DNA of 64,000 bases from the IMG/VR virus record IMGVR_UViG_3300046808_001301. The stretch is one strand, 5' to 3'. The position numbers and the translations under genes are program-made. Positions within the stretch are counted from its first letter, which is position 1. Each line of letters opens with the position of its first letter. Positions 5,900 to 62,312 of the stretch are shown piece after piece. The notes under the pieces were generated by a model. The model searched no databases, was not told where the DNA came from, and saw only the letters and a program-made list of their open reading frames with translations. This DNA is from a virus.

Positions 5900-5904
5900 A
5901 CTTC

Positions 5905-27829: not shown

Positions 27830-27836
27830 CAACTCA

Positions 27837-31451: not shown

Positions 31452-31504
31452 ATACCCTTTACTTATCGTTGACTACAGAATTTTTCACGGTAATTACTTA
31501 CCAT

Positions 31505-36484: not shown

Positions 36485-37666
36485 ATGGCTGGAATAAAAA
36501 TAACCGATCTACCTTCTGTTAACGAAGTGCTTCGTACCGACCAAATGCTTATCGCAAGAGGAGAAACAACCAGAAAAGTATTCGGCACAGCTCTTACTAC
36601 AAAAGAAGATATTGCTGATTTAACTAATATTGTACGACAGCTTTCATCTTCTTCTCTTATTCCGGAAGAGTCTGAATTAATTTCACTATATTACAATCCG
36701 TTAACAAAGAGACTTTCAGCTGAAATCGAGGGGGTTATTCCTCAGTCGCTAGGAGGAACCGGGTATCAATCATACACGGAAAATCAAACATTGATTGCTG
36801 ACGCTTATGGAGTTTTAAGAAAATTTGAATTTACAGCAGGCAGAGGAATGCTGCTTAGTGCTGATCAAGGAACGTTTAAATTTATAAACACTGAGCCACA
36901 TATTCCGACAAATTTGTCTGCAACATATGTTAGTTCGTTTGTTAATTTGCATTCGTCTACTGGAGATGATACTACAATTGAATCATCTACTTTTTCAAGA
37001 GCGGGAGTAATGTCATCCCAAGACAAAGTTCGTTTGGATGATTTGTTTTTGTATAGAACAAGCCAGCCATTGGTATTTAGCAACAGTATTACAGCTACCA
37101 GTACTTTGTTAAGCGGGGCCAGAGTTGTTGTTATTGATTCAACCGATGATGTACAAATTACATTGCCATATGAAGTTCAACAAGGTTCAGCATTTCATTT
37201 TTTAAGAGCTAATTCAGGCTCTGTAACATTTGTTGGAAATCCTGGAGTTCAGATTTCAACTATTAAAAACAGTAGTTATCTCAAAATTCCTTATGTTAAC
37301 GGAGAAGCCACTGCTTATTTTAATGCAGCAGGCCAATGGAAGTTGACAGGAGATCTTGCTTCTTTGTGGGACAGAACATTAACTGGCCCAAATTCAGTAG
37401 ACGGGGAGCAAAAAGTGGGAATATTTACTAATGGAGCTTATGACTCAATTTATTATAAAAATGAGTGGGACAAAGCAACTACAAGTTTTAAATCCATGGT
37501 CGTGCACGTTGGTGGAATAGTAAGAGCAGCAATTGATTTTACTGAAGATAGATTAGGAAAACCCTTTGGTTACAGCATTGGGTCAGAATTAGGAGGACCT
37601 TCCATCCAAGACCCTGGTCCTACTTATTTCGGAACGTTTACGGCAGGAAACGTCAATTTGACTTAA
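36485..37666 (+). CDS. putative fibre protein
   Basis: IKITDLP start, GGTG, AGVMSSQDKVRLD motif; C-terminal domain shared with 8050..9018. Confidence 0.65.
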   Translation: MAGIKITDLPSVNEVLRTDQMLIARGETTRKVFGTALTTKEDIADLTNIVRQLSSSSLIPEESELISLYYNPLTKRLSAEIEGVIPQSLGGTGYQSYTENQTLIADAYGVLRKFEFTAGRGMLLSADQGTFKFINTEPHIPTNLSATYVSSFVNLHSSTGDDTTIESSTFSRAGVMSSQDKVRLDDLFLYRTSQPLVFSNSITATSTLLSGARVVVIDSTDDVQITLPYEVQQGSAFHFLRANSGSVTFVGNPGVQISTIKNSSYLKIPYVNGEATAYFNAAGQWKLTGDLASLWDRTLTGPNSVDGEQKVGIFTNGAYDSIYYKNEWDKATTSFKSMVVHVGGIVRAAIDFTEDRLGKPFGYSIGSELGGPSIQDPGPTYFGTFTAGNVNLT

Positions 37667-38112
37667 TTTATATTTAAATGTTTCTCTGTTAGTATTACAA
37701 ACTGACAACCGTGTCTTTCGCTATACTCTGTTGCAGCTTTCCATTTAGCTTGATTTTTTACATATTCAGCTTGTTGTCGCATTAACGTTTTTGTTTTTCT
37801 GTTTTTTTGAACAGGAGGTAGTGTCTGAGCATGAGGTTTAATTTCAATAAGAAATTTCTTTAACTCTCCGTTCTTATCTCTCATTGTAACGTTAAAGTCC
37901 GTAAAATATCTACTAACTCTACCAGTTAACGGATTTTGATAAGGAATAACAACCGTTTCTGATCCCCAAGACAATATGTTTGGATTGTGATCAAACATTA
38001 GCATGCATTTACACTCCCAGCCAGATCGATATGTTATAGGAAACGATCCTTTATATTTTTCAGGATGTTTTGGCGCAAATATGCCTTGCTTAAAATTTGA
38101 ATTCTTTTTCAC
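37663..38112 (-). CDS. gp4: head completion nuclease (T4 gp4-like, TnsA-like fold)
   Basis: PEKYKG, YRSGWE, WGSE, RYFTDF, IEIKP, NQAKW..A, ILTE. Confidence 0.9.
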   Translation of the reverse strand: MKKNSNFKQGIFAPKHPEKYKGSFPITYRSGWECKCMLMFDHNPNILSWGSETVVIPYQNPLTGRVSRYFTDFNVTMRDKNGELKKFLIEIKPHAQTLPPVQKNRKTKTLMRQQAEYVKNQAKWKAATEYSERHGCQFVILTEKHLNIN

Positions 38113-38947: not shown

Positions 38948-40651
38948 TTAGCCAATAAAGAAAGTTGGAGGCATATTATCTTGGTAAGAATTCATCAGCT
39001 CTTGCTCAAGTGTTTCTTTTTCTTTGATTCCTTCAGCCAGCAATGTTTGACTGTTAACTTGTCCTCCGCCAAACATATTAGTTCCCGAAAACTTTTCTCT
39101 TACTCTAGCAATTGCAATCTTGCTCAAAGCAAGAGCATATTTCTGCACCCATCTTTCTTTAATTAAATCTTTAATAGGTCTTTCAATATAGCAACCAACT
39201 ATGCCTAAGAACGTATGATTTGATTGAGGTTCAGGAATAAGTCTAAGGACCTGAGATCTAGGATCAAATCTAAACTGAGATTGCATTGCTAGAACCTTGT
39301 TTCTTGTATCAATAAACCCTTTCAGGACTTCCCATGTAACTAAGTCAAACCCAAAGTTACCGATCATGTAAGAAGAGTAAATTTGCTGAGCCATTGCTTG
39401 CTCCATTGTGAACAGGGTATTAATTCCTGTATCTTCTCCTTTGGAAAACTCAAAACAATCAACGACTTTTCTCCAGCTTGCTAAATCATAATCATAACCA
39501 GCAGACAAACCTGGTGTTCTACTATTTCTCATTTCTGATGTTTTGTTAATCAAGCTATCAACTTTAATTCCTACACCAGGCAAATAAAGTTTGGAATCAA
39601 ACACCAAATATTCTTCCGTATAACCTGCCCATTTTGTAAAATACTCAATTGAGTCGGTGATATTGTCGTAAATTTGGTCGTCAGAAATTTCTAAATTAAT
39701 CAACGGCGCTCCAAGCTGTCTTTGAATGCGATTTGAAAGGTCTTCGTATGTTTCAACAGACGCATTATATGTAGTTCCTCCTCGATTCGCATAACCAGGC
39801 GGAAGTACTGGTCTCGGTGTCGGTTGAGGAGTTGGAACCGGAGTAGGAGTTGGAGGAGGTTGTGACCCCAATATAATAATACTACGAAATGTTAGAGAGT
39901 CTCCAGCGGTAACGGAAATTATTCCGTCTTGCCCTGGAAGAAATTCGCTATCCCTAATAAAGATGGCTTTGTTGTATTCTCCGGACGGAACTGTTAATTG
40001 AGCCCCCGTAGCTGCTGTAAATATACCAATTGGTTTCGCTGGATCAAAATATAAATTTAAATAAATGCTCGCTTGAGTATTGTTTGGAAGTGTGTATGCC
40101 TGAGAGTGATCATACGTTCCAGGCATAATAATGTAACTAACTACTGAATTATTAAATGGCGTTGGCGTCGGAACAGGCGTAAGTGTGGGTGTTGGAGTTG
40201 AAGTCATTTCAACAGGAGTAGATGTAGGTATTACTGGAGTAGCAGTAGGAACTACAGGTGTCGAGGTTGGTTCAATAGGAGTAGCTGTAGGAACTACCGG
40301 AGTAGCAGTAGGCTCCACGGGTGTCGAAGTCGGAGTGGCAGTAGGAGGTATAAAAAGTTGAACAGTAATCGTCTGGCCATTAACAATGTAAGTACCGTCT
40401 GGAGCCAGTTCAGGAGACCACGATGTTACTTCCCAAGGATAAAAGACATCTTGAGACGACGAATAATACAATACGTCGGGTCCAGTTGCTATGTTATACA
40501 GGCCCCAAATAGTTCCATTCCAATAAATTCTTTCGTCTCCGTAAGTGTATGCTGGTCGATCATTAAGCAGACCAACGTAATCAAGAGTTCTTCCTCCAAT
40601 CCAGTTTGTAATAATTGGAGTCGTGTCAATTGGATCAGGAATTGCAGGCAT
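38948..40651 (-). CDS. gp13: neck protein (T4 gp13-like) with ~290 aa N-terminal extension containing Pro/Thr linkers
   Basis: IQRQLGAPLINLEISDDQI.D.I..SIEYF, WVQKYALAL.K, REKFSG..MFGGG, PPTFFIG. Confidence 0.88.
   Translation of the reverse strand: MPAIPDPIDTTPIITNWIGGRTLDYVGLLNDRPAYTYGDERIYWNGTIWGLYNIATGPDVLYYSSSQDVFYPWEVTSWSPELAPDGTYIVNGQTITVQLFIPPTATPTSTPVEPTATPVVPTATPIEPTSTPVVPTATPVIPTSTPVEMTSTPTPTLTPVPTPTPFNNSVVSYIIMPGTYDHSQAYTLPNNTQASIYLNLYFDPAKPIGIFTAATGAQLTVPSGEYNKAIFIRDSEFLPGQDGIISVTAGDSLTFRSIIILGSQPPPTPTPVPTPQPTPRPVLPPGYANRGGTTYNASVETYEDLSNRIQRQLGAPLINLEISDDQIYDNITDSIEYFTKWAGYTEEYLVFDSKLYLPGVGIKVDSLINKTSEMRNSRTPGLSAGYDYDLASWRKVVDCFEFSKGEDTGINTLFTMEQAMAQQIYSSYMIGNFGFDLVTWEVLKGFIDTRNKVLAMQSQFRFDPRSQVLRLIPEPQSNHTFLGIVGCYIERPIKDLIKERWVQKYALALSKIAIARVREKFSGTNMFGGGQVNSQTLLAEGIKEKETLEQELMNSYQDNMPPTFFIG
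40155..40350 (-). repeat. Pro/Thr coding repeat (PTATPVV / PTSTPVE, 21-nt units)
   Basis: Visible in the gp13 translation. Confidence 0.8.
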
Positions 40652-40675: not shown

Positions 40676-42553
40676 TTACGCTGCCTCAATAGGAGCGGGA
40701 GCAGTTGGTGCTGCTGGAGCTCCAGTTGTTTCCGGAGCTGCTTCTGGTCCTCCTGCAGCTTCTTCTCCTGTTGGAGGTGGCATGGCCGATCCGCCTTCTC
40801 CAAAATCTGGTATAGCTCCTCCGCCACCGCCACCACCGCCTCCGCCAGCTTCTCCTCCACCTTCGGGAGCAGCTCCTCCAGCGGCTTGTTGCAATGCCAG
40901 CTGTTCTCTAAAGTTCGGGCCCATTTCCGTAATTCGTGCAATTTCCCAAGCTAGAGCAGCGTCTTTTCTGAGCCATTCTCTGTTTTCCATCATTTCGTTT
41001 GCTGACATGTCCAAATAATACTTTTGAGCATAGGACTTTGAAATTGCTTCTGACTGAGTTGCTGTATTATAATTTTCAAACTTCATTGACAGCAATTGCT
41101 GATTGCGCATTGCCATAAATGAAGTAGGTTCGTTAAATTTTAAATTAAGGTTTTGTTCTCTAAGTCTATATTCTTTCCAGAGACCCTTTAATTTCAAATG
41201 AGTAATAAACGATTCTTTTATACCAACCGCAAAACGAGATTGGAGCCTGATAATAAATCTAGCAAACCTTAGCTCATCTCGAGTAATCTCAGCTCCATCT
41301 TTAAATGGATCTCCAGCTGTCAAGAACCTTGAAATCGGAACCTTTAAGCTCTTATATAACTTTGTTAAAAAGTAATCCAAGTCTTTGATTTCTCCCAAGT
41401 TGCCTCCAGAAGGAAGAGTAGTTACATCAGTTCCTTTACCTTGAGCATCAACAGGAAACCAATAAGCATCCAACATGGATTGAGGATCATATACATTAGC
41501 TGTTCTTCCTTCTGCACTATTGAAAGTCTTTTTAGACCAATATTTCATCATGAGTCCTTTAATATATGACTCAGCTTTTGGAGGAGGCATGTTGCCTGTA
41601 TATACTTTAAAAACAAGTCTTTCAGGAGCTCTCACTAAACGATAAATTACCACAGAATCTTCAATCAACGAAAGCTGTCTATAAGCTCTCTTTGCGTTTT
41701 CAACAAACGGCAATCTAAATGTTTTAAATTCATTCCATAACCCAGAATGAATGTATGAAACCTGAGCTTTTTGCAAGAACAAAAGCTGTTGTTGATCTTC
41801 TGTGTTTAAAGAAGTTGTTGGTCCAATTATGGGCTTCTGTAAAAGATATCCTTTCAGCAATTCATTTTGTACATTATGGAAAACTGGATTAATCAGTTCA
41901 GACGGAATCGACATTAAGCCAATAACTCCTAAATCTTCTTTGCCTTCTTTTATTAAATTTTCAAAAAAAAGTTCTCCATCAACTAACAACTGACGAAATT
42001 TTTCCCATCCTGTGTGTCCCAAATCAAATATATTGATAAACTTTTTAAATTCTTTTTGTAATTCGTCTTGAATTGTTTTACTATACTCTCCGTTAACTAA
42101 TTCAAACTTAATAATTTCTCCGTCTTCGTCCGTAACGATACACTCGTCACAAATTTCATCCAAACAATCAGCAAGTTCGGCATATGCTGCCATTCTTCTG
42201 TAATCAGTTAAGCGCCTTGGTTTATCTTTATCAATGTTAGCGTATACAAATGCTTGATAATCTTTATTGATGGAAAACGAAGCAGGAGAGCTTGAACCAT
42301 ACTGATCAGCGTTTGGCGGCTGAGACAAAAATACGGATTGGTCCTGCAACATTTCATCTCGTAACGAAGTTTGTTGTTTGAAATCATCAAACTTCGGATT
42401 GTTTTTAACCATCGCGTCAATGATTTGATATGCATATGGTAACCTAGAAACAAACGCTCCTAACAAAGACGTCTGTGGATAAGGTTGAGGCTTAACAGAA
42501 CCTGTAGAGTTTCCAGGGACTCCAGCGTTGTTCGTATATGGACGATAAATCAT
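40676..42553 (-). CDS. gp20: portal protein (T4 gp20-like)
   Basis: YRRMA, QLSLIEDSVVIYRLVRAPERLVF, GNMPPPKAE, TLPSGGNLGEI.D, EITRDELRF. Confidence 0.97.
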   Translation of the reverse strand: MIYRPYTNNAGVPGNSTGSVKPQPYPQTSLLGAFVSRLPYAYQIIDAMVKNNPKFDDFKQQTSLRDEMLQDQSVFLSQPPNADQYGSSSPASFSINKDYQAFVYANIDKDKPRRLTDYRRMAAYAELADCLDEICDECIVTDEDGEIIKFELVNGEYSKTIQDELQKEFKKFINIFDLGHTGWEKFRQLLVDGELFFENLIKEGKEDLGVIGLMSIPSELINPVFHNVQNELLKGYLLQKPIIGPTTSLNTEDQQQLLFLQKAQVSYIHSGLWNEFKTFRLPFVENAKRAYRQLSLIEDSVVIYRLVRAPERLVFKVYTGNMPPPKAESYIKGLMMKYWSKKTFNSAEGRTANVYDPQSMLDAYWFPVDAQGKGTDVTTLPSGGNLGEIKDLDYFLTKLYKSLKVPISRFLTAGDPFKDGAEITRDELRFARFIIRLQSRFAVGIKESFITHLKLKGLWKEYRLREQNLNLKFNEPTSFMAMRNQQLLSMKFENYNTATQSEAISKSYAQKYYLDMSANEMMENREWLRKDAALAWEIARITEMGPNFREQLALQQAAGGAAPEGGGEAGGGGGGGGGGAIPDFGEGGSAMPPPTGEEAAGGPEAAPETTGAPAAPTAPAPIEAA

Positions 42554-42616
42554 TTTATTTAATTATTGTTTAAGACGATCTTGAACAACTCTATTTAATA
42601 GATTAAGTTAAATAAA

Positions 42617-42895
42617 ATGCTAGCTAAGTTATTTGACAAAAAGTCCTCTAATTTAAATCTAAAACCTGTTCCTCGAGGATTTTATGCTTTTAATGTGGAA
42701 CGTGCTGGAGACTTTTTAATCTTTGTTGAAATGCAAACTGATGCTTACAAATTTCTCTATGTTCCCGGAGCAGAGCCATTTTATCTTTCTATTGAAGACT
42801 TTACAAAATCTATGCAAAAAGGGGTGTTGTCGTTTGTTGAACAATTACCAGAAGAAGTGTATAATGAAAGTTTATCGTTGTCATGTCCAACATGA
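42617..42895 (+). CDS. hypothetical protein
   Basis: 92 aa ORF filling the coding space. Confidence 0.7.
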   Translation: MLAKLFDKKSSNLNLKPVPRGFYAFNVERAGDFLIFVEMQTDAYKFLYVPGAEPFYLSIEDFTKSMQKGVLSFVEQLPEEVYNESLSLSCPT

Positions 42896-42906
42896 CTAAG
42901 GATAAT
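42878..42906 (+). promoter_or_regulatory. sigma70-type promoter
   Basis: TTGTCA-17 nt-GATAAT, 8 nt before ATG at 42915. Confidence 0.55.
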
Positions 42907-42914
42907 AAGGTGCA

Positions 42915-43154
42915 ATGAAAAATACAAAAACCACAAAAACTCCAAAACAGACTATCACAATAGACGGAATGAGTCTCTATGAGCTTTGTCGATGGGCAGC
43001 TCTAAAGGACGCAATTGATATTATTGGAGACAAATGCGATGAACGAAAGATTGACTTTAGTGACTTTGATCTCAAACCTCTCGACTTGCTTAAATATGTC
43101 GATACAGCAACAGATACCCTTTACCATAAAGTAATTCAACATGAACCGGCTTGA
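42915..43154 (+). CDS. hypothetical protein
   Basis: 79 aa ORF. Confidence 0.7.
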   Translation: MKNTKTTKTPKQTITIDGMSLYELCRWAALKDAIDIIGDKCDERKIDFSDFDLKPLDLLKYVDTATDTLYHKVIQHEPA

Positions 43155-43584
43155 ACTCATAATACTCTCAGTTTCCGTAGGAATAACCATTATTGTATCA
43201 ACACTATTCGGCTTTGCTGGTAGTTCTTTAATTGGAACTTTTTGGTCGTGGTTTTGGATCTCAGCTTTAGTGCAAGCTATTCTTTTTGCTACAGTTAATT
43301 CATTCCTATATCAAAAAGATAGGATTATTGCAGATCAATTAAGCGTTTTGTCATTGGAACAATTGTCCAAATTTTCAATTAGGATTTTTTGTTCCTATTG
43401 TCAGCAACAAAACACAACACCGATCCAGCTCAACCAAAAAAACAGTTTTAAGTGCGAGTCATGCAATCAAGTAAATGGAATAGTTATGCAATTTACTGCT
43501 ACTCCTCTTACAACTCCAGTAGAATCAATAAAACATAATATTGAATCGATAGAAATTAAGGCAATAGATTCGCAAACAACATAA
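43141..43584 (+). CDS. two-TM membrane protein with zinc ribbon
   Basis: Two hydrophobic segments, then CSYC...CESC. Confidence 0.7.
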   Translation: MNRLELIILSVSVGITIIVSTLFGFAGSSLIGTFWSWFWISALVQAILFATVNSFLYQKDRIIADQLSVLSLEQLSKFSIRIFCSYCQQQNTTPIQLNQKNSFKCESCNQVNGIVMQFTATPLTTPVESIKHNIESIEIKAIDSQTT

Positions 43585-43592
43585 GTACGTTT

Positions 43593-43880
43593 ATGAATAT
43601 GATCAAAGATTCCAACATTTTTAATGTTGTCAATCCTACAGCTTTGCAACCAAAAGCCAAGAAGCCTATGCCTTTTCCGTTGGAAAATTTTGACGAAGAA
43701 ATTTCAGACGCGTATTCAAAAATTAATTCTATTTTAACCAAGCTCAGAGCAGCTAGAGAAAACCCAGTTAATAACACTACTGCTAAAACCAAAAGACTTA
43801 TTTCTTTGGAATATAAAACTAAAACTTGTTTGAGTCTCATTAAAGACATATCCAAACAATGTGCTGAATTATGGTTTTAG
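43593..43880 (+). CDS. hypothetical protein
   Basis: 95 aa ORF; TAAGTA 5 nt upstream. Confidence 0.7.
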   Translation: MNMIKDSNIFNVVNPTALQPKAKKPMPFPLENFDEEISDAYSKINSILTKLRAARENPVNNTTAKTKRLISLEYKTKTCLSLIKDISKQCAELWF

Positions 43881-43883
43881 CTA

Positions 43884-43910
43884 TTGACTTGTTTTAACCG
43901 TTAGTATAAT
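43884..43910 (+). promoter_or_regulatory. sigma70-type promoter
   Basis: TTGACT-15 nt-TATAAT (short spacer), 8 nt before GTG at 43919. Confidence 0.55.
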
Positions 43911-43918
43911 TTATATAC

Positions 43919-44185
43919 GTGAATCATCCTAACATTTATCACGTAAAGCCAGAACAAGTCGGAAGTGAAGATCTCGGAGACTTTCTTCGAAAAGCAATCA
44001 ACAGACAATTTGAAGGAAGAGATTTTTATATTTCAAAAGAATTAATTGAAGAAAAACCTACTCATTACTCAACTACTCCTAGAAAACTTAGAGGGTTTTT
44101 GATTAGCGAAGGAAACAATGAAGGACACGCAATTTGGTTTGACGTGACTGAAATTAAAGACGGAATAAACTGGATGGGCCGCTAA
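43919..44185 (+). CDS. hypothetical protein
   Basis: 88 aa ORF with GTG start. Confidence 0.65.
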   Translation: MNHPNIYHVKPEQVGSEDLGDFLRKAINRQFEGRDFYISKELIEEKPTHYSTTPRKLRGFLISEGNNEGHAIWFDVTEIKDGINWMGR

Positions 44186-44189
44186 TATC

Positions 44190-45428
44190 ATGTCTACTAT
44201 TTTTATCCAAATTGCCTCATATAGAGATCCTCAGCTCATACCAACACTAGATGATTGTATCGCTCAAGCTAAACACCCAGAAAATCTTCGTTTTTGCATT
44301 GCTTGGCAGCACGGTCCCGAAGAAAACGTCGACAAGTATAAAGAGGATTCAAGATTTAATTTTCTAGACATTCCTTATGAGGAGTCAAAAGGAGCTTGTT
44401 GGGCAAGAAACAAAATACAACAAGAATACAAAGGAGAGACATATACTCTCCAATTGGATAGCCATCATCGGTTCATTAAAAACTGGGACGAAGAGCTTAT
44501 TAATATGCTAGAGGGACTGAAAGCAAAAGGACACAAAAAGCCTTTGCTAACTAGCTATGTTTCTAGCTTTAATCCAGAAAACGACCCAGAGGGCCGTCAA
44601 CAAACTACTTGGAGGATGAATTTTGATCGTTTTACTCCCGAGGGAGTAATATTTTTTCTTCCTGCTCATTTTCCGGCCGACAAAACATTCACCGAACCTG
44701 TTCTAGCTCGTTTTTATTCAGCTCATTTTTGTTTTGCTGACGGCTGTTTTGCAAAAGAAGTTCAGCATGATCCTGAGTATTATTTTCACGGAGAAGAAAT
44801 ATCAATTGCAGTAAGAGCGTTTACACACGGTTATGATTTATTTCATCCTCACAAAACGATTGTTTGGCATGAATACACAAGAAAGGGCAGAACAAAACAT
44901 TGGGACGATGATAAAGAATGGTGGAAAAAGAACTCAAGCTGTCATTTGCGCAATAAAAAACTTTTCGAAATGGATGGAGAAAAAAGAGATATTGATTTCG
45001 GAACCTATGGATTTGGTCAAGTACGTACTTTAGAAGATTACGAAAAATATGCTGGAATTTGTTTTAAAAAGCGAGCTATTCAGAAGCACACTTTAGAGCA
45101 TAATTTTCCCCCAAACCCTCAATATGCCACTCCAGAAGAATATGATGATTCGTTTTTATCCGTTTTCAAACATTGCGTAGATGTTCATAAATCAGAGGTA
45201 AAGGAAACAGACTATGATTTTTGGGCACTAGCTTTTCATGATGAATTAGACAACACTCTGTATAGGAAAGATGTGGATGAAGCAGAAATTAAGTCTAGTA
45301 CCAATGATAAAGACGAGTATCATAGAATTTGGAGAGATTTTCAGACTGAGAAACAACCAAAGTATGTTGTTGTTTGGCCTCACTCAAAATCCAAAGGTTG
45401 GTGCGACAGAATCAAAAAAAATCTCTAA
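44190..45428 (+). CDS. GT60-like polypeptide alpha-GlcNAc transferase
   Basis: TIFIQIASYRDP, GACWAR, LQLDSHHRF..NWD, FHGEE...RAFTHGYD, WHEY signature. Confidence 0.85.
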   Translation: MSTIFIQIASYRDPQLIPTLDDCIAQAKHPENLRFCIAWQHGPEENVDKYKEDSRFNFLDIPYEESKGACWARNKIQQEYKGETYTLQLDSHHRFIKNWDEELINMLEGLKAKGHKKPLLTSYVSSFNPENDPEGRQQTTWRMNFDRFTPEGVIFFLPAHFPADKTFTEPVLARFYSAHFCFADGCFAKEVQHDPEYYFHGEEISIAVRAFTHGYDLFHPHKTIVWHEYTRKGRTKHWDDDKEWWKKNSSCHLRNKKLFEMDGEKRDIDFGTYGFGQVRTLEDYEKYAGICFKKRAIQKHTLEHNFPPNPQYATPEEYDDSFLSVFKHCVDVHKSEVKETDYDFWALAFHDELDNTLYRKDVDEAEIKSSTNDKDEYHRIWRDFQTEKQPKYVVVWPHSKSKGWCDRIKKNL

Positions 45429-45440
45429 GTACAAGCAAAG

Positions 45441-46172
45441 ATGAGATCTGCTTTAGTGTGCATTGCCAAAAACGAAGACAACTACATTCAAGAGTGGGTC
45501 GATTACAATTTAAAATTAGGATTTGATACAATTTTTATTTACGAAAATTTTTGGAAGTGTCCGATCAATCATCCTCAGGTCGTTAACATTCCTCATGATG
45601 ACGCTTCAAACAGCAAACAACCAAACGCATATGCGTTGTTTAAAAACGAGCATGGAGACAAATATGATTTTGCTGCATTTTTTGATGTAGACGAATTTTT
45701 GGTATTAAAACAACACCAATGCGTTAACGATTTTTTAGCTGAGAGAGTTGAGTATCCAGCAATAGCAGTCAATTGGGCATCATATGGAGATAGTGGGCTT
45801 ACTGAAGTCATAGACAACAATTACAGCTTATTAAAGCGCTTTACAAAACGTAAAATATTTCATGCTGGGATAAAAACAATTTTAAATTTAAAACTATCAA
45901 ATTGGGCCATTCAATCTGTTCATTGTGCTTTTTGTGTTAACATGGTCTGTCCTGCTGGATTTTCTATACCTCCTAACTCGTCGTCAAATCCTAACGGAAA
46001 TTACGACATAGCTCAATTGAATCACTATTCTGTTAAAACACTACAAGAATTCAGACGAAAACAATCTTATGGGTTGAGAGCTTGTAATAATCCTTTGCAC
46101 GACCATGACTTTCGTTGTAATAATTTTAATGAAGTAGAAGATAAATGTGCACTTGAGTTTTTTGAAAAATAA
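45441..46172 (+). CDS. GT92/GT2-like glycosyltransferase
   Basis: AKNE..YI.EW..Y...LGFD, FFDVDEF, LNHY motifs. Confidence 0.8.
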   Translation: MRSALVCIAKNEDNYIQEWVDYNLKLGFDTIFIYENFWKCPINHPQVVNIPHDDASNSKQPNAYALFKNEHGDKYDFAAFFDVDEFLVLKQHQCVNDFLAERVEYPAIAVNWASYGDSGLTEVIDNNYSLLKRFTKRKIFHAGIKTILNLKLSNWAIQSVHCAFCVNMVCPAGFSIPPNSSSNPNGNYDIAQLNHYSVKTLQEFRRKQSYGLRACNNPLHDHDFRCNNFNEVEDKCALEFFEK

Positions 46173-46188
46173 ATATTAATTCATATAT

Positions 46189-47016
46189 ATGAAGGACTTC
46201 GCATTACTAGGTGTTTGCAATAACATCACAAACAATATACAAAAAATTAAACTATGGTCGCAAAGTTTTAAACAACATTGTGATTCAGAAGTTTATTTGG
46301 TTTGTGTTAACTCAACCAAAGAAGAGCTTGGTCTTGTCAGCCAATTAAAAATTAAAGCAATTCCTGGGGAAGAAGCGGATTGTTGGAGCTTGTATCACAA
46401 AAGACTGAGACATACACTAGAAGTATTAAAAACTCTCAATGAGAAGTTTGTTTTAGTTACTGATGTATTTGACGTTTTGTTTCAGAACAATCCGTTTACA
46501 AAATTAAATTTTGAACAACATGATGTGTTCGTTGGACAAGAAGGAGGCGTGCTAGTTCATGAAGAGCCATGGAACAGAACTAATATTGGTAAGTTGTATC
46601 CAGATGAAATGGAAAAATGTTGGTCTATACCGGTCATTTGCTCAGGCGTCATTGCTGGTAAAACAAAATCTTTGATTGCTTTATATGATGAGTTGTTTCA
46701 ATTGTGCGAAGCTAGCACAAAAACAGATAATATTATTGACCAAGCAGCATTGCACGTAATGGTTGCCAATAATAGAATACCAGGGTTAAAACAACTCAAT
46801 TTAAATGATGGTTGGGTTGTACATTGCGCAGTTGCTGGTCCGACTCAATTTTTTGAACAATGGGGATTCAAATACTGCATTACAACGAGAGGCCTTAGTG
46901 TGCCAAAATTAGAAAATAATGCCGTTGTAAAAGACAATGGTGAAGTGTATGATATCGTCCATCAATTTAACCGCATTCCCGAATGGAATGCTGCTTTAGT
47001 ATCTAAATATGAATAA
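46189..47016 (+). CDS. GT-A fold glycosyltransferase
   Basis: VTDVFDVLFQNNPF, ICSGVIAG, DQAAL, HQFNR. Confidence 0.7.
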   Translation: MKDFALLGVCNNITNNIQKIKLWSQSFKQHCDSEVYLVCVNSTKEELGLVSQLKIKAIPGEEADCWSLYHKRLRHTLEVLKTLNEKFVLVTDVFDVLFQNNPFTKLNFEQHDVFVGQEGGVLVHEEPWNRTNIGKLYPDEMEKCWSIPVICSGVIAGKTKSLIALYDELFQLCEASTKTDNIIDQAALHVMVANNRIPGLKQLNLNDGWVVHCAVAGPTQFFEQWGFKYCITTRGLSVPKLENNAVVKDNGEVYDIVHQFNRIPEWNAALVSKYE

Positions 47017-47794
47017 TACAGCTGTAGTGTTTTGTACGTATCCTCGCTCTCTTAGTGGAGGATTTCATGAAAATTTTGTAAAATACAAAAATGAAAATTT
47101 TGAAAATTTTTTTGTTGTTTTTGACGATCAACAAAAAGAATTCGACCCAATGTATGTTAAAGAGGTCTACAAAAAAACACCAATTTTTGCTTACAACCTC
47201 AAAGACTTCAACAAATATCAGTTTGATCGACCTATAGATAAAAAGCATCGTTGGGGGTCACATCAAAATCCAAATTACTTTTATGCTCATTTCAGAATGT
47301 TGCTTTTCTTCAGGAAGTACAGCCAATTTGATTATTATTGGTTTTTTGATGATGATGTTTATTTTGACACGAATCTTAAATCATTTTTAACTGAATATGA
47401 GACCCACAAAGAGGACTTTTTAGCAATTCAGGTTTTCAAAAAAGAAGATTACGAAGAGTTTCCGTTTATAAGCAAAGCAAATGATCGAATGGGGTCACAT
47501 GGACATTGGTTAGGGTTTGCACCTGGACCAGGAGATGCATACAAATCAACAGCAAAACATATGGGATGTTTTTATCCAATTGTTAGATATTCTAACAAAG
47601 CTATGAAACACCTATTGCAACTAAACGAACAAGGTTTTTATGGATACTCTGAAGGGTTCGTTCCGACTTCGTTAGCTAGCGATGGATTTTCTGTAGCTAG
47701 CATGCTTAATGAGCATGATGAATTCTTCATTAAGCCTAAAACTCAATGCAAACTTACTCACAAAAACGATAACTTTACCTGGACATGGATATAA
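47009..47794 (+). CDS. putative glycosyltransferase (DUF3405-like)
   Basis: FDYYWFFDDDVYF, IVRYS..A, SEGFVPT. Confidence 0.6.
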   Translation: MNNTAVVFCTYPRSLSGGFHENFVKYKNENFENFFVVFDDQQKEFDPMYVKEVYKKTPIFAYNLKDFNKYQFDRPIDKKHRWGSHQNPNYFYAHFRMLLFFRKYSQFDYYWFFDDDVYFDTNLKSFLTEYETHKEDFLAIQVFKKEDYEEFPFISKANDRMGSHGHWLGFAPGPGDAYKSTAKHMGCFYPIVRYSNKAMKHLLQLNEQGFYGYSEGFVPTSLASDGFSVASMLNEHDEFFIKPKTQCKLTHKNDNFTWTWI

Positions 47795-48861
47795 CATTCT
47801 GCACATTCTTTTTTGATATAAACCGATCCAATTGGAATAACTTTGCTATTCACAGTAACACGTATATGCATTGGTTTAAAAACGTGTTAAGTTTGGATAT
47901 TAATTTACACATTCAAACTGAAGAAAAGTTTTTAGACGTAATCCGAGAAGAAAGAAAAAAAGTCGATCCGGAGTTTAAAAAGACAATTATTAAAATAACC
48001 AAAGTCGAACATCTAGAAGCCTGGAAACGCTATAATGCTTCTCTTGAAGATTTAATGTTTTCAGATGAGTTTAAGCAGAAAATTCGTCACGATGTTCCTG
48101 AAATGACAAAGCCTTTGTACAACGTTTTGATGTTTAACAAAGTCCATTATCTTAAGGAAATTATAAAAACAAATCCTTTCAATACAAAATTTTTTAGTTG
48201 GGTTGATACTGGTTTTGTTAGAGATAGCTCTTGGCCTATCGACAACGAACAATGGCCGGATCCTGAAAAACTAATTCTGCAACCAAACAAAGTAAAGTTC
48301 TTTTGTATAAATGACAACGTCGTCGATGGAATAGCTAATACCACAAAAGAAGAACATTGTATGTCTCAGATGAGATTTTTGAAAGGAACTATTTTCTTTT
48401 TAGATGGAGCATGTATAGACGAGCTTTGCGATCTTTTTGACAAAAACGTTAAACGATGCATTGCAGACAAATTTATTGGATCAGACGAAAAAATTTTTGA
48501 TTTATGCTACTGTGATAATCCAGATTTGTTTGAATTAACGAAATGCGATTGGAGAGAAGAATTTCATTTGTACGCAAAAAATAACAGAAAACAATACAAC
48601 ATTACTTTTTCTTGGAATGTAGAAGAAATTACAAAAGCTCAGGAGTATCGTTTTTGGTACGTAGGAATAGAAGATTCTACTGAAGCTGTTATTCATCGTT
48701 GTGATTTTAATCCCCATGATCACGAAGAAATATGCAATTTAACGACAACGAACTACACGGTTAATTTTGCTTCTGCAACAAAGCCACGTAGGGTTGTTAT
48801 ATGGCCTGTCGATAACGATGGCAATTGGCTGCAGAGAATCGAGTATCCAATAAATTTGTAA
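47785..48861 (+). CDS. HtrL/WlaTC-like glycosyltransferase with extra C-terminal domain
   Basis: TFFFDINR..W, PE....Y..LMFNK, NPFNT..F.WVDTG. Confidence 0.75.
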   Translation: MDITFCTFFFDINRSNWNNFAIHSNTYMHWFKNVLSLDINLHIQTEEKFLDVIREERKKVDPEFKKTIIKITKVEHLEAWKRYNASLEDLMFSDEFKQKIRHDVPEMTKPLYNVLMFNKVHYLKEIIKTNPFNTKFFSWVDTGFVRDSSWPIDNEQWPDPEKLILQPNKVKFFCINDNVVDGIANTTKEEHCMSQMRFLKGTIFFLDGACIDELCDLFDKNVKRCIADKFIGSDEKIFDLCYCDNPDLFELTKCDWREEFHLYAKNNRKQYNITFSWNVEEITKAQEYRFWYVGIEDSTEAVIHRCDFNPHDHEEICNLTTTNYTVNFASATKPRRVVIWPVDNDGNWLQRIEYPINL

Positions 48862-48888
48862 TAGTTCTTATAGATAAGTATAGAAGAT

Positions 48889-49905
48889 ATGTTTTTTATA
48901 CTTTTACTCGGAATGAGCGCCTTCATGGTTGCTGGTTCAGCTGCTTATTTTTCTGTATTAGGCATTGCAACATTATTCTCTGGAAGTTACTACCAAGTTT
49001 TAGTAATGGCTGGGTCATTGGAGTTCGGTAAACTTGTGGCCACCTCTTACTTGTATAGATATTGGAATAAGACCGTTTGGTGGCTCAAAATGTACTTGAT
49101 TCTCGCAGTAATAACATTAATGGGAATTACTTCATTGGGAATTTTTGGGTATCTTTCTGCTGCATACCAAGTTAATTCTTCCAAAGCCTCTCAAGTTGAC
49201 CAACAAAGTGCTATGATTCAATCTCAGAAGGATACAATGACTTCTGAGATTGAACAAAATACAAAAAGAATAGAGACGCTTAATCAATTAAGAGCAACCC
49301 AAGAGGAAAGAGTTCAAACAGCAGGAAACTACAAGGCTCCAAGAGAACAAGCTTATGCTGCAATAGACAAAGCAAATCAAGAAATTCAAAAGCTTACTGA
49401 AAGAAATCAATTATTACAAGCTGAAAAATTTAAAAAAGATACAGAGCTAGCTGAAGTTTCTCAGCAGATGGCACACGCCAAAGACATTGGCACGTTTAAA
49501 TTTGTTGCTCAAACAATTAAGAAACCTTTAGATACTGTAGTTATACTTTTCATATGTGTTCTTATTTGTGTGTTTGATCCTTTAGCTGTTGCTCTTATAT
49601 TGGCATTCAATGTTGCAACAAAAGGAAGCGTTTTAAAAGAAGAATTTCCAGAACCAACTTCTACTCCCGAACCAACTTCTACTCCTGAACCAACTTCTAC
49701 TCCAGAACCAACTCTGGATCCAACTTCTACTCCTGAACCAACTTCTACTCCTGAACCAACTTCTACTCCAGAACCAACACTGATTGTAGAGGTAGAGGAA
49801 CAGCAAACAGAAGACCCATATACATTATCTCTAGCAGATAAGTCTAAGACCACGATTGTATCAGGAAAAATTAAAGCTACAGGTAGACTCAAACCAAAAA
49901 GCTAG
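48889..49905 (+). CDS. membrane protein with coiled coil and PTSTPE repeats
   Basis: AYFSV.G...LF.G, LEFGKL, TSLGIFGYLS, VFDPLAV motifs; TAAGTA 8 nt upstream. Confidence 0.75.
   Translation: MFFILLLGMSAFMVAGSAAYFSVLGIATLFSGSYYQVLVMAGSLEFGKLVATSYLYRYWNKTVWWLKMYLILAVITLMGITSLGIFGYLSAAYQVNSSKASQVDQQSAMIQSQKDTMTSEIEQNTKRIETLNQLRATQEERVQTAGNYKAPREQAYAAIDKANQEIQKLTERNQLLQAEKFKKDTELAEVSQQMAHAKDIGTFKFVAQTIKKPLDTVVILFICVLICVFDPLAVALILAFNVATKGSVLKEEFPEPTSTPEPTSTPEPTSTPEPTLDPTSTPEPTSTPEPTSTPEPTLIVEVEEQQTEDPYTLSLADKSKTTIVSGKIKATGRLKPKS
49648..49779 (+). repeat. 18-nt coding tandem repeat about x7 (EPTSTP)
   Basis: GAACCAACTTCTACTCCN units. Confidence 0.92.
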
Positions 49906-50498
49906 CCTTTATGAGCAATTACTGAACCGTATGCTAACCTCATTGAAGTAATTGGAGCAGAAAAGGTAAAATAATTTGGGAGTTCAAACGAAGTTAAACT
50001 TGATGTATTCGAATTTTTGGCTTCAAATAATTGAAATTTAGCACCAGAAACTACAACAACTTTTGTCCAATTGCCAGTATACGTCGATCCCGGAGTTAGC
50101 ACGTCTATGCCGATTAACCCGTTTTGTATGTCTAGTTGTGCTGAAAGTTTTTGTAGCAAAGTTTCTACTTGATCGACGTTTATTTTTAAATCTTCAGTGT
50201 TAAGATCAATCTGAATAGACATTCCAGTAACGCTGTGTAAAAGCGTAATAATTTCATTTTGTTTGCTTGTTTGTATAGAAGTTAATAAATCAAGCTTTGT
50301 GTTCGTCGGAGTTATATCCAATGAAAGCGCTCCAGTTGTTATGCTTATGTCTGAAGCATTAGTAAGATACGTTGCTTTAGCATACAAAGGACGTCCCGCT
50401 CCTTCTACAGGAATCCATGAAAAGGTTTCAGCCATTCCTGCATTATATGTTGGAGGAGCTCCTGGAGTTGCTGTTAGTACTGGTGATAGACTTGGCAT
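49902..50498 (-). CDS. putative structural protein
   Basis: 198 aa, central coiled coil; TAAATA 5 nt upstream. Confidence 0.55.
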   Translation of the reverse strand: MPSLSPVLTATPGAPPTYNAGMAETFSWIPVEGAGRPLYAKATYLTNASDISITTGALSLDITPTNTKLDLLTSIQTSKQNEIITLLHSVTGMSIQIDLNTEDLKINVDQVETLLQKLSAQLDIQNGLIGIDVLTPGSTYTGNWTKVVVVSGAKFQLFEAKNSNTSSLTSFELPNYFTFSAPITSMRLAYGSVIAHKG

Positions 50499-50518
50499 AT
50501 AACTATTTAATCCTACTG

Positions 50519-50546
50519 TTGAAAGTTTTTCTATATATGCTATGAT
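50519..50546 (+). promoter_or_regulatory. sigma70-type promoter (extended -10)
   Basis: TTGAAA-16 nt-TATGAT with TG extension, 6 nt before ATG at 50553. Confidence 0.7.
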
Positions 50547-50552
50547 TTATTC

Positions 50553-50819
50553 ATGATTACTACTAAAGAACAGCTCAAAGAACTTCTCAGCGAATATATC
50601 CTAATCGTCGAATTTAATAAAGCAGATGGCTCCAAAAGAACAATGAAATGCACTCTCATGGAAAATATGGTCAAGCCTCATGTAAAAAAGACAGAAAGAC
50701 CTAAAAAACCGAATGATGACGTATTGAGTGTTTGGGACGTCGAAAAGGATGCTTTTCGTTCTTTTCGACTGGACTCTCTAATTAGTTATCAAAAAATTGA
50801 AGAGGGCTACGAGCTTTAA
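50553..50819 (+). CDS. WYL-like SH3-fold protein (DUF2693-like)
   Basis: VEFNKADGSKRTMKCTL...VWDVEKDAFRSFR. Confidence 0.8.
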   Translation: MITTKEQLKELLSEYILIVEFNKADGSKRTMKCTLMENMVKPHVKKTERPKKPNDDVLSVWDVEKDAFRSFRLDSLISYQKIEEGYEL

Positions 50820-50822
50820 TTG

Positions 50823-53537
50823 TTACATTAGTCCGGGTATTAAATTAGTCTTCTTCTTGATATTAGCAATATCAGTTTTAACTAATTGCATGTCAGTATC
50901 TTGAGCGACTGTGCTAATAGCAGCTTCAACTTGTGGTTGAAGATATTGCAACAAAAATCCGGTATCGTGTACCAGCGAACCTGTTCCTGCACCGGAAGCA
51001 GAATTTGTATCTATAATAGAAACGTTATCATCTCTATACAATCTACCCCCGTTAATTACAACATCAGTTGTACCAGTATTTTGTAATTTTATAGGAGCAA
51101 CAGACGCATTGATTCTATAATTCATTCTATCAATTGGTGAGATTGCACCAAAGAAATTAGCAATACCTTGTGTTGTAGTTATGACATAAGCATAGTAGTT
51201 ATAAATTTCTTGAGCAGTAATTTGATAGGGAGCTTCATCGTCATCTAAATCAATTTGAATGTTTGTGTAATCTGGTGTTAATGTAATTCCGGTAATATTT
51301 GAACCATCGATGTTATTGGCGTTATATACAGCATCTGCAACTTGGTCTGCTCTAAATGATATACCAGCAGCAGTAGCAACACCAAAAGTTTCAAATGGCT
51401 CCAACGCTTGGAGACCTACTTGACATGTAACACGAAGCCTAATGGTATCCCCAGCCACTGCATCTGTTGTACCATACGAACCAGTAGCAGTTATTTTACC
51501 ACTTCCTCCAGTTACATAATTTTCAATTTCATTATCTCCTGTTACGTTAAAAAGCTGAATCGTAGAACCAGCTTCAACATTAGTAACTGTCCAAGGTAAC
51601 ACAGTTTCAGCACCGTATGTACCTAAAATCTCAGCACCATTTAATAACGTAAATGTACCAGAAGATGCAATATTTCCGACAAACTGGGAAGCCTTAATTG
51701 TAATTGTTGTTCCATCAAAAGCAAAAACACTTGCTGCATTAGCATCAACAGTAATGTTATAACTACCAGCATTAATTGTGTTACCGCTTCTACTAACTAT
51801 TGTTGAAGTCTCTCCTATGTAATTGTCGTAGAGGAATGATTTCGCTCTGTCATAAAATTCTTCTGGATTGTCAATTGTTGTATAGGCATCCACAGTTCCT
51901 TTATTAGTTTCTGTTATCGAAGAGTCATCAAAAAGAATCCAATTTACTTGCAATGTATCCAAACCTTTTAGTGCTTGTGTGGAAATTGACAATAAATGTC
52001 CATATGAACAGAATTTAAATGTAAAATCATCTGCACTCGTATTCGAATTAGAGCGTCGATCAACTTTATAAAAACCACCAAACCTATCAGTATCCCAGTC
52101 CGAATACAAAGGTGAAAGATTATCTGTTTCTCTCCAAGTGGTATTAAACGACGGAATATTATATGCAGTCAATGCAGCTGAATTGTTTGTGTTGTACTCT
52201 AAAAATTGTGTAGCTGTTGTGACTTTGAATGTTGGTGTACTCCCACTTAAATCTGTAGTATATGCATATGTTATTGGTTGTGTGTAGTCGTATGTTACGG
52301 AACCATTTGGGTTTAACACTCCTAACGATAGGGTGGGCGCGTTGTAAGTACCGCTAACTGGATCTGGAAATGTTACATTTTTTGCATACTGCGAAGGGTT
52401 ATCTTGGCAATAGATTTTAACCCCAGAAATAGCAACATTTGCATCATTAGTGACGTTTAAAGAAACTTCTTTTTTTACAATAGCAGAACCGAGTTGAGCA
52501 GAGGAACCAGTACTTAATCTCCACAATGATCTAATATTAGACCCATTAGCTGAATTTGTAATAATCCAATCTCTGTGGCAATATGTTCCATTTTGTGAAT
52601 GACCAATATCATAATCATTAGCATTCTTAGACGCATCAAAATTTCTTAATTCTATTTCATAGTAGATTTCAGATAATGTTTCTACCAGTCCAGAGGATTT
52701 CAAAACAAATCCTTTCTCTTTAACACTTCTGAAAGCAGCAATATCTACATTGGCTATTTCAAAATTTCTTACCACTCCTTCGCCCATACTTCTAGTATCT
52801 AAAGTACGTGTTCCGAATAGAGATAAACCATTAATGTTAACAAACCCGCTTAGTGCATTCGGGCGATGAGTTACAATTGTACCACCCCTTGCCCACAAAA
52901 GACCATCAGCACTGACGTAAATACCTCCACCCTCTTCTGTAAAATTGTTTGGAGATGTTCCAGTAATATAAATACCAGTCCCTGTAGAGTACCTAGTTCT
53001 TCCATACAGCGTTATTTCGTTTCCATAGTTATAACAGGCTCTTAAAATAGATTGCCCGTTTGATGGTGGTACTGGTACATCTTTATTCGTGTCTATAGTA
53101 ACGGTACTACTAGTAATCGCTATTACTCTAAACACTATATTATTTAAATTATTTGCAGTATTAGTACCACCTGTATTAGTACTCCTAATCTCTACTGCAT
53201 CCCCAACTTGAAATGGATGACTAGCTCTAGTAAAAGTAAGATTCCCGTCAGCAGCTAATGACCATGCTGTATTATTACCCCAATCAGTGGCTGTTCGGTT
53301 GATATATAAACAAGGTTGAAAAGTATTGTCAAGAGCATCGTGATGAAATAAGACGACTTCTTTTTCCGGATCATGAAATAACGTTCCTTGAACATATAGT
53401 CGGTTTGTTCCAAAATCATAATAGGTTATACCGTCGTCTACTGTTCTCGTAACTCCTGCGTTTCCTGCAAGACCTGATAAATTCAAGTCTCTACCTGTTT
53501 GTGTTATTATTCCTCCCGATGGTGCTGAAAATGCCAT
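50823..53537 (-). CDS. large putative fibre / receptor-binding protein
   Basis: 904 aa, T/S/N/G-rich, short C-terminal coiled coil, last gene of the fibre cluster. Confidence 0.55.
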   Translation of the reverse strand: MAFSAPSGGIITQTGRDLNLSGLAGNAGVTRTVDDGITYYDFGTNRLYVQGTLFHDPEKEVVLFHHDALDNTFQPCLYINRTATDWGNNTAWSLAADGNLTFTRASHPFQVGDAVEIRSTNTGGTNTANNLNNIVFRVIAITSSTVTIDTNKDVPVPPSNGQSILRACYNYGNEITLYGRTRYSTGTGIYITGTSPNNFTEEGGGIYVSADGLLWARGGTIVTHRPNALSGFVNINGLSLFGTRTLDTRSMGEGVVRNFEIANVDIAAFRSVKEKGFVLKSSGLVETLSEIYYEIELRNFDASKNANDYDIGHSQNGTYCHRDWIITNSANGSNIRSLWRLSTGSSAQLGSAIVKKEVSLNVTNDANVAISGVKIYCQDNPSQYAKNVTFPDPVSGTYNAPTLSLGVLNPNGSVTYDYTQPITYAYTTDLSGSTPTFKVTTATQFLEYNTNNSAALTAYNIPSFNTTWRETDNLSPLYSDWDTDRFGGFYKVDRRSNSNTSADDFTFKFCSYGHLLSISTQALKGLDTLQVNWILFDDSSITETNKGTVDAYTTIDNPEEFYDRAKSFLYDNYIGETSTIVSRSGNTINAGSYNITVDANAASVFAFDGTTITIKASQFVGNIASSGTFTLLNGAEILGTYGAETVLPWTVTNVEAGSTIQLFNVTGDNEIENYVTGGSGKITATGSYGTTDAVAGDTIRLRVTCQVGLQALEPFETFGVATAAGISFRADQVADAVYNANNIDGSNITGITLTPDYTNIQIDLDDDEAPYQITAQEIYNYYAYVITTTQGIANFFGAISPIDRMNYRINASVAPIKLQNTGTTDVVINGGRLYRDDNVSIIDTNSASGAGTGSLVHDTGFLLQYLQPQVEAAISTVAQDTDMQLVKTDIANIKKKTNLIPGLM

Positions 53538-60661: not shown

Positions 60662-60664
60662 AAA

Positions 60665-62295: not shown

Positions 62296-62312
62296 TGTGA
62301 TAACTTAATTAA

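Follow-up and report, generated by a model that had tools for sequence, protein, structure and literature searches.

Which molecules does a phage glycosylate when it carries a compact row of glycosyltransferase (GT) genes directly followed by a gene with Pro/Thr repeats? This question is raised by positions 44190-49905 of a 64-kb stretch of DNA (the window) from the IMG/VR virus record IMGVR_UViG_3300046808_001301. The window, which derives from an aquatic T4-like myovirus, covers part of a genome of ~149 kb and contains 68 open reading frames (ORFs). We slightly favour the view that the phage carries, at 44190-48861, a cassette for cytoplasmic protein O-glycosylation, for which we infer the sugar donor, the acceptor residue, the targets and the effect on the virion. 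Since such cassettes lie beside Pro/Thr-repeat proteins across many phages, the enzymes probably glycosylate the phage's own proteins. The row comprises the five cassette genes and the gene next to them:

44190-45428, + strand: GT60-family (PF11397) glycosyltransferase of 412 residues, the proposed initiator (Pfam, AlphaFold model, motifs)
45441-46172, + strand: GT2/GT92-like glycosyltransferase of 243 residues, a variable middle gene (Pfam)
46189-47016, + strand: probable GT-A enzyme, GT77/Nucleotid_trans-like, 275 residues (sub-threshold Pfam match, DVFD motif)
47009-47794, + strand: probable GT-A enzyme, GT31/Galactosyl_T-like, 261 residues (sub-threshold Pfam match, FFDDDV motif)
47785-48861, + strand: HtrL_YibB enzyme, short form, 358 residues, the conserved last enzyme of the cassette (Pfam, AlphaFold model)
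48889-49905, + strand: membrane protein of 338 residues, a candidate substrate (translation, Tandem Repeats Finder)

All cassette and repeat ORFs were recovered where the preliminary description of this DNA had placed them. The six ORFs are tightly packed, being 4-27 nt apart or overlapping by 8-10 nt, and the gene with EPTSTP repeats indeed comes straight after the cassette, beginning 27 nt downstream. A promoter and terminator scan of 42400-51000 performed no better than on shuffled sequence and is therefore uninformative on operon structure, so that co-transcription is deduced from gene spacing only. No match was obtained when the DNA of the cassette block was searched at near-identity against cultured phages.

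Judged from its sequence and predicted structure, the lead enzyme is a member of the GT60 family (PF11397) with a GT27-related GT-A fold. It matches the PF11397 'GlcNAc' profile with E 5.6e-75 and 253 bits (cut-off 21) in two stretches that span most of profile positions 2-350. The ASYRD, DSH and GEE motifs by which it was initially called GT60-like fall at residues 9-13, 90-92 and 201-203, and Y11, D13, D90, S91, H92, G201, E202 and E203 do not vary among 34 homologues. Residues 1-~300 constitute the catalytic GT-A domain with the DxH-type DSH motif, and residues ~320-412 a separate small C-terminal domain of strands and helices that lies outside the Pfam model. A search of PDB sequences with the enzyme gave no matches. 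The AlphaFold (AF2) model, built from the 34-sequence alignment, has a mean predicted local distance difference test (pLDDT) score of 92.7, and its best ~50 PDB matches are all mucin-type polypeptide N-acetylgalactosaminyltransferases (ppGalNAc-Ts) of family GT27 (E ~3e-11), in agreement with the kinship to these enzymes asserted beforehand. The lead enzyme has no N-terminal hydrophobic segment and hence should be cytoplasmic. The characterised GT60 enzymes act on protein, either on Thr of mucins or on hydroxyproline (Hyp) of Skp1 (PMC6939170, PMC3769586, PMC8724618).

The other four cassette genes had been described, together with the first, as five adjacent GTs. This count can be resolved into three firm assignments (GT60, GT2/GT92-like and HtrL_YibB) and two probable ones, because 46189-47016 and 47009-47794 have only sub-threshold family matches. 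The second gene, 45441-46172, matches PF13704 (Glyco_tranf_2_4; E 4e-11) and PF01697 (GT92; E 2e-6), and BLAST found no homologue of it in 80 viral GT60 loci. The products of 46189-47016 and 47009-47794 are, from their sequences, probable glycosyltransferases. PF03407 (Nucleotid_trans) is found below the Pfam cut-off in 4/7 family members of the former, in which a DxD-type DVFD motif is conserved; PF01762 (Galactosyl_T) is found below the cut-off in 3/7 family members of the latter, in which the FFDDDV motif is invariant. Searches of the PDB with both profiles returned nothing usable, and the Atlas structural neighbours of 46189-47016 are viral proteins that fuse the same domain to GT60/GT7 or GT29. 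Homologues of these two genes occur in eight GT60 loci, always as a pair. The last enzyme matches PF09612 with E 5.4e-26, residues 2-264 aligning to profile positions 2-266 of 267, and its AF2 model (pLDDT 88) displays a retaining-type GT-A fold of the GT8/GT6-like kind, with XXYLT1, LARGE1, BoGT6a and LgtC as top PDB matches. The PHROGs scan assigned no family to 46189-47016, 47009-47794, HtrL or the membrane protein 48889-49905.

The first and the last enzymes of the cassette have a domain in common. The last ~75 residues of the short HtrL are homologous to the C-terminal domain of GT60 by BLASTP (E 3e-7), and hhalign of short-form HtrL sequences against the GT60 C-terminal domain gave 97.3% probability and E 2.7e-11, with controls at or below 1%; the match was stronger with the short form only than with long and short forms mixed. 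The domain, of ~75-95 residues with a conserved W-P-x-S/D-K/N-x-G-W near its end, is encoded at 45150-45428 and 48630-48861 and is covered by neither Pfam model (PF11397, PF09612). In the long form of HtrL (~555 residues) a GT2-like domain takes the place that the GT60-type C-terminal domain has in the short form. No ricin-type lectin match was found for the C-terminal domain of GT60, for which a mixture of strands and helices is predicted. By analogy with the lectin domain of ppGalNAc-Ts, the shared domain may be a substrate-aiming module for both fixed enzymes. According to PMC8724618, the C-terminal targeting domain that animal ppGalNAc-Ts possess is missing from protist GT60 enzymes, so the phage enzymes differ on this point. 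A predicted complex of GT60 with HtrL scored 0.00, which speaks neither for nor against binding.

The same arrangement of first and last enzymes recurs in other viruses. The metagenome protein collection yielded at least 7970 significant relatives of the GT60 protein, and 183 IMG/VR stretches that matched the search motifs were confirmed, from which 80 GT60 loci were kept as the viral comparison set. Only four cultured phages carry GT60, all of them jumbo phages: XacN1 and Xoo-sp13 of Xanthomonas, and CM1 and RAS14 of Stenotrophomonas. In 71/80 loci the cassette starts with GT60, continues with 0-4 variable genes and ends with a gene of the HtrL family, usually the ~555-residue form with a GT2-like C-terminal half. 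The variable middle genes encode GT25, GT7-like, GT77-like and GT31-like transferases, methyltransferases of the CmcI and FkbM types, and DUF3431 proteins. These gene contents give the layout the look of a glycan-assembly locus in which the first and last steps are fixed and those between them can be exchanged. As in mucin-type systems, the proposed initiator is encoded together with putative extenders, the window having GT60 and four GT or GT-like genes in one row. Two tandem GT60 paralogues occur in locus L084 at 5070-7563 (50% and 37% identity to the window enzyme) and also in L025 and L031, which recalls that protists and animals have several initiator isoforms.

Candidate substrates come from the window itself, where only three of the 68 ORFs are Pro/Thr-rich: the membrane protein 48889-49905, listed above, and two others.

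38948-40651, - strand: gp13-like neck or head-tail adaptor protein of 567 residues, a candidate virion substrate (phrog_211)
8050-9018, + strand: protein of 322 residues encoded directly after gp15, a candidate substrate (translation, Tandem Repeats Finder)

Residues 292-566 of the gp13-like protein match phrog_211 (head-tail adaptor Ad2; E 1e-23). Its N-terminal extension of ~290 residues, correctly picked out beforehand for its PTATP repeats, is made of two Pro/Thr linkers and two small domains, and Tandem Repeats Finder places a PTATPVx repeat with a 21-nt period at 40208-40327. In the product of 8050-9018 a ~150-residue N-terminal domain is followed by ~170 residues of Pro/Thr repeats that run to the C-terminus; the PTEVP repeat at 8665-9008 has a 15-nt period and, by the same program, 22.9 copies, in line with the more than 20 units counted earlier. 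The membrane protein has about four hydrophobic segments, a coiled-coil loop of ~100 residues and a C-terminal tail of approximately eight EPTSTP units, recorded by Tandem Repeats Finder as 7.7 copies of an 18-nt period at 49647-49778. We also considered that Pro/Thr ORFs might be frame artefacts of repeat DNA. This was ruled out for 8050-9018, whose repeat continues the reading frame of an N-terminal domain with a homologue in a relative, and for 38948-40651, where the tracts join conserved domains.

Whether Pro/Thr tracts and GT60 travel together was assessed by scoring as Pro/Thr-rich any ORF with at least 60% Pro+Thr+Ser in a 30-residue window and at least 20% Pro, the control being 80 random viral loci drawn with an arbitrary 14-mer. 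The co-occurrence that the preliminary description had put forward as a check was observed: 56/80 GT60 loci have a Pro/Thr-rich ORF within 10 kb (0.79 per 10 kb), compared to 3/80 random loci (0.068 per 10 kb), a statistical linkage with Pro/Thr/Ser-repeat proteins that amounts to a 12-fold enrichment near GT60. After dereplication by GT60 identity, a Pro/Thr ORF was present in 31/51 groups at 95%, 25/37 at 85% and 6/14 at 75%. The tracts, which in viral loci are mostly alternating Thr-Pro, are spread over 46 unrelated protein clusters and often belong to the genes that flank the cassette directly; the clusters include DUF285/BspA-like proteins, with genes for lectin-like proteins in the vicinity. 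Two further tests, from which kinship among contigs was not removed, point in the same direction. Of 17 viral records that are at least 100 kb long and free of duplicates, 11 have a strict (PT)4-coding match within 10 kb of GT60, whereas 3.7 were expected from random placement within the same records (p = 5.5e-5). In the reverse sampling, PF11397 was detected in 9/69 records picked by a (PT)5-coding DNA pattern and in 0/48 random records (Fisher p = 0.010).

The composition of the tracts bears on the identity of the acceptor residue. In a Skp1-like pathway, a prolyl 4-hydroxylase (P4H) would make Hyp in the tracts, and GT60 would then add alpha-GlcNAc (N-acetylglucosamine) to it in the manner of Gnt1. 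The tracts do hold as much Pro as Thr, the GT60 family includes the cytoplasmic, soluble and Hyp-specific Gnt1 (PMC6939170), the phage enzyme is likewise soluble, and the gene set (GT60, GT2, GT77-like, with a GT32 elsewhere) loosely recalls the Skp1 pathway. Nevertheless, we consider such a route quite unlikely: the alternating Thr-Pro that dominates the tracts is the classic mucin-type context, and no 2-oxoglutarate-Fe(II) oxygenase or P4H was found among the scanned ORFs of the window, which comprised all those of at least 100 residues and several shorter ones and represent less than half of the ~149-kb genome.

Under the cytoplasmic O-glycosylation reading that we favour, the soluble GT60 enzyme would transfer the first sugar from a host UDP-N-acetylhexosamine, most likely UDP-GlcNAc, to Thr/Ser of the Pro/Thr tracts during infection. 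The next three GT-A enzymes would extend it to a short oligosaccharide, and the HtrL-type retaining transferase would add a conserved last or branching sugar. The shared C-terminal domain of ~75 residues may aim the first and the last enzymes at the same substrates. The likely targets would be the N-terminal extension of the gp13-like protein, the PTEVP tail of 8050-9018 and the EPTSTP tail of 48889-49905.

The closest relatives of this phage allow the correlation to be followed over short distances. They were defined as 14 loci, the window included, with a common portal (75-89% identity). The cassette occupies a variable island adjoining the portal gene:

40676-42553, - strand: gp20 portal protein

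The short-HtrL cassette is shared by the window, L081 and L093, and these three alone have the Pro/Thr extension of gp13; in the 11 other relatives the gp13 homologue has 285-342 residues and lacks it. L083 has GT60, four different genes and the long HtrL, and bears its Pro/Thr tract on a tail-fibre-like protein, while L085 and L089 have neither a cassette nor a Pro/Thr ORF in view. The protein after gp15 is tailless in relatives (124-143 residues, including one GT60 carrier; 132 residues in the L335 homologue). The core of the membrane protein 48889-49905 is kept, with a tail that is Pro/Thr-rich in L093, poly-Glu in L081 and absent from the cassette-less L085. These differences among relatives indicate that tracts are gained, lost and moved between proteins. 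The tract-cassette correlation at this distance is suggestive and comprises few independent events.

Several observations weigh against the cytoplasmic O-glycosylation reading. The window, L081 and L093 are mutually closest kin, so the correlation between gp13 and cassette is not phylogenetically independent; L083, L084, L087 and L088 have GT60 and a short gp13 without Pro/Thr tracts, and L086 has two Pro/Thr ORFs with no cassette in view. On the larger scale, 24/80 GT60 loci lack a Pro/Thr ORF within 10 kb, the record G122, rated 100% complete, has GT60 and zero strict (PT)4 matches, and 87% of the sampled Pro/Thr-bearing viral records have no GT60. Co-location could also merely reflect the position of cassettes in or beside structural-gene modules. 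The association of GT60 with Pro/Thr tracts is thus statistical and not obligatory. The original proposal that the phage builds O-glycans on its own Pro/Thr linkers finds partial support in enzyme family, fold, co-occurrence and the Schiff-stained glycoproteins of phage XacN1 described below; the glycocalyx that it envisaged, which could affect protease resistance or adhesion, is conjectural.

Xanthomonas phage XacN1 provides the cultured example (locus L331, AP018399 203370-223508). Its cassette opens with GT60 (ORF334, 48% identity) and closes with a long HtrL (ORF330, E 4e-185 against the HtrL profile), between which lie, in this order, a carbamoyltransferase and two ORFs. ORF325, a protein of 3313 residues with Pro/Thr-rich segments, is encoded ~9 kb from the cassette, after the baseplate-wedge genes. 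At least two glycoprotein bands were detected among XacN1 virion proteins by Schiff's reagent (periodic acid-Schiff staining; PMC5852040, main text and Supplementary Fig. S4), and the authors who described the phage proposed its own transferases as the makers of these glycoproteins (PMC5852040). Two facts reduce the weight of this example for our reading: XacN1 also carries a GT9 gene, and the Schiff-stained bands are not assigned to proteins. The XacN1 data on phage protein glycosylation are accordingly supportive but not decisive. The carbamoyltransferase in the middle of the XacN1 cassette has 765 residues and hints at a carbamoylated glycan.

GT60 is also found on bacterial chromosomes. 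Relatives are encoded in 358 stretches of GTDB species genomes, 80 of which were kept as the bacterial comparison set. HtrL lies nearby in 36/80 of these, and a Pro/Thr-rich ORF occurs in 35/80, often directly upstream of GT60, a count that the high G+C of bacterial genomes may inflate. An example is the cultured Jiulongibacter sediminis JN14-9 (L360, NZ_LGTQ01000005 757911-779140), where the GT60-HtrL pair has an adjacent Pro/Thr-rich ORF; further hosts of the three-part combination, which occurs in cultured and uncultured bacteria, are Saprospiraceae, Gemmatimonas, Verrucomicrobia and Burkholderiaceae. Some GT60 homologues of Burkholderiaceae lack the C-terminal domain.

The presence of GT60-HtrL pairs in many bacterial chromosomes could also suggest a non-protein acceptor, such as the host lipopolysaccharide (LPS), a capsule or other envelope glycan, a lipid carrier or phage DNA, with the Pro/Thr tracts serving as plain spacers. 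The HtrL_YibB family takes its name from a gene cluster for the LPS core, LPS and O-antigen loci typically encode GT25, GT2 and methyltransferases, and the literature usually assigns the GTs of cyanophages and jumbo phages to cell-surface or DNA modification (PMC12801897, PMC12619734). On the other hand, the closest structures belong to peptide-acting transferases, all GT60 enzymes characterised so far have protein acceptors, the cassette includes no flippase, polymerase, lipid-carrier transferase or membrane anchor, and an acceptor of this kind leaves unexplained both the within-genome clustering of Pro/Thr tracts and the Pro/Thr genes that flank cassettes directly. As for DNA, the features of phage DNA glycosylation were not found in the window: the GT60 fold is that of a peptide-acting GT-A enzyme, not of T4 AGT/BGT, and no deoxynucleotide (dNMP) hydroxymethylase or related base-modification gene is present in the 64 kb. 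We therefore regard a non-protein acceptor as unlikely.

A further alternative keeps the acceptor on protein and places the targets among host proteins or non-virion phage proteins, for instance 48889-49905, with a role in host takeover, superinfection exclusion or lysis control. It is consistent with the variable accessory island in which the cassette is found and with the membrane protein encoded 27 nt after it, whose EPTSTP tail could, from the positive-inside rule, face the cytoplasm. The Pro/Thr tail of this protein varies, however, even among cassette-bearers, as shown by the poly-Glu of L081; the flanking Pro/Thr proteins of most loci look fibre-like or decoration-like, with DUF285/BspA-like and lectin-like neighbours; and the glycoproteins of XacN1 came from purified virions. 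We judge this assignment of targets to be very unlikely.

Each component of the proposed system has counterparts elsewhere. Together with the protist GT60 enzymes (T. cruzi pp-alphaGlcNAcT, those of Dictyostelium, and Gnt1), the phage enzyme belongs to PF11397, has the GT-A fold and the DxH-type motif, would use Thr/Pro-rich acceptors and is followed by putative extending transferases; like Gnt1, it is soluble, having neither signal nor anchor. It differs by its phage or bacterial origin and by the extra C-terminal domain of ~95 residues common to the short HtrL. The animal GT27 ppGalNAc-Ts are its best structural match and combine a GT-A domain with a C-terminal domain; their acceptors are rich in Pro/Thr/Ser, as are those proposed in the phage. 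They have 11-15% sequence identity to the phage enzyme, which has a small C-terminal domain and is predicted to be cytoplasmic, not Golgi-located. E. coli HtrL/YibB, the product of a waa LPS-core region gene with no known function, shares PF09612 with the last cassette enzyme, whereas the viral HtrL is paired with GT60 in 71/80 loci and is fused to a GT60-type C-terminal domain or to a GT2-like domain.

There are precedents, too, for viruses that encode the glycosylation of their own proteins. According to Freeman et al. 2023, as cited in PMC12619734, the GTs of mycobacteriophages Che8, Corndog and Myrna modify the phages' own structural proteins on terminal extensions. That account concerns another host phylum and phage type and the C-termini of capsid and tail-tube proteins (PMC12619734), while the candidates here are Pro/Thr tracts on neck, fibre-like and membrane proteins. 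The capsid protein Vp54 of chlorovirus PBCV-1 is likewise glycosylated by a virus-encoded, host-independent cytoplasmic system, an analogy drawn by the XacN1 authors (PMC5852040); PBCV-1 differs in being a eukaryotic virus with atypical N-linked glycans and different enzyme families. Our search of about 8.4 million papers and preprints returned no description of GT60 cassettes tied to Pro/Thr-repeat proteins in phages. The novelty thus lies in the combination of virus-encoded self-glycosylation and GT60/GT27-type mucin initiation, each known, in an undescribed setting.

The broadest interpretation, which we offer as a tentative one, is a widespread and undescribed cytoplasmic mucin-type O-glycosylation of phages and bacterial chromosomes. 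In it, GT60 and HtrL would bracket swappable transferases and methyltransferases to produce lineage-specific glycans on the Pro/Thr linkers of neck, fibre and decoration proteins, and the shared C-terminal domain would be a new targeting module. This likens the cassette to an O-antigen locus, but one that works on protein. Virion-protein glycosylation by phages is experimentally established only in mycobacteriophages, and the GTs of related phages have been assigned to cell-surface or DNA modification without test (PMC12801897, PMC12619734). If the interpretation is true, mucin-type protein glycosylation with a GT60 initiator, as in protists, would be common among phages too, and the 'PTPTPT' tracts that are widespread in phage fibre and decoration proteins would acquire a function. 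Variation of the middle genes would mean that virion glycans are lineage-specific, which could matter for protease resistance, adsorption, grazing, immune recognition and phage engineering.

Outside the cassette, the preliminary description had listed a number of sugar genes, of which the epimerase, the GT32-type enzyme and the AsnB-like amidotransferase were recovered; the dehydrogenase-like gene scored below the cut-off, and no de-N-acetylase was detected in the window. The genes lie in two blocks.

26813-27790, + strand: NAD-dependent epimerase/dehydratase, in the sugar-metabolism block 26813-30059
59918-60661, - strand: GT32-type transferase, in the second sugar block 59918-63644
61546-62295, - strand: weak UDP-sugar-dehydrogenase-like gene, below the cut-off, in the second sugar block
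62313-63644, + strand: AsnB-like glutamine amidotransferase, in the second sugar block

The first block (+ strand) includes, besides the epimerase/dehydratase, a small kinase-like ATPase and a Glyco_tranf_2_5 enzyme; it is kept in relatives without the cassette and thus is not part of the cassette proper. The second block also holds one gene of no assigned function, and its predicted products together could make an amidated uronic-acid sugar.

The remainder of the window is that of a T4-like phage only distantly related to cultured ones, the nearest being Pelagibacter phage HTVC008M and the cyanomyoviruses, with only ~38% identity in one conserved protein. Further structural genes encode the gp23 major capsid protein, the gp21 prohead protease and the gp15 tail-sheath stabiliser. 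The gene 37663-38112 (- strand), flanked by the neck and portal genes on one side and the prohead protease on the other, encodes a protein with a TnsA-like endonuclease N-terminal domain (PF08722, E 1.8e-21); this location inside the structural module is unusual for a nuclease of mobile-element type, and the protein is kept in almost all close relatives (64-89% identity). Two very large proteins encoded on the + strand, 16199-20536 (1445 residues) and 22116-26468 (1450 residues), are probably fibre or decoration proteins; the latter has a weak sialidase-N/lectin-like match at its end and four copies of a 75-nt tandem repeat (23730-24028). Another tandem repeat, of 42 nt (14-residue units) in 5.4 copies, spans 12447-12671 within a 249-residue ORF, 12153-12902, that has no known family. 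Finally, a PhoH-like ATPase (421-1197, - strand; E 6e-49) and a Cpn10/gp31-like co-chaperonin (31469-31879, + strand; E 2e-6) are typical auxiliary genes of marine T4-like phages.

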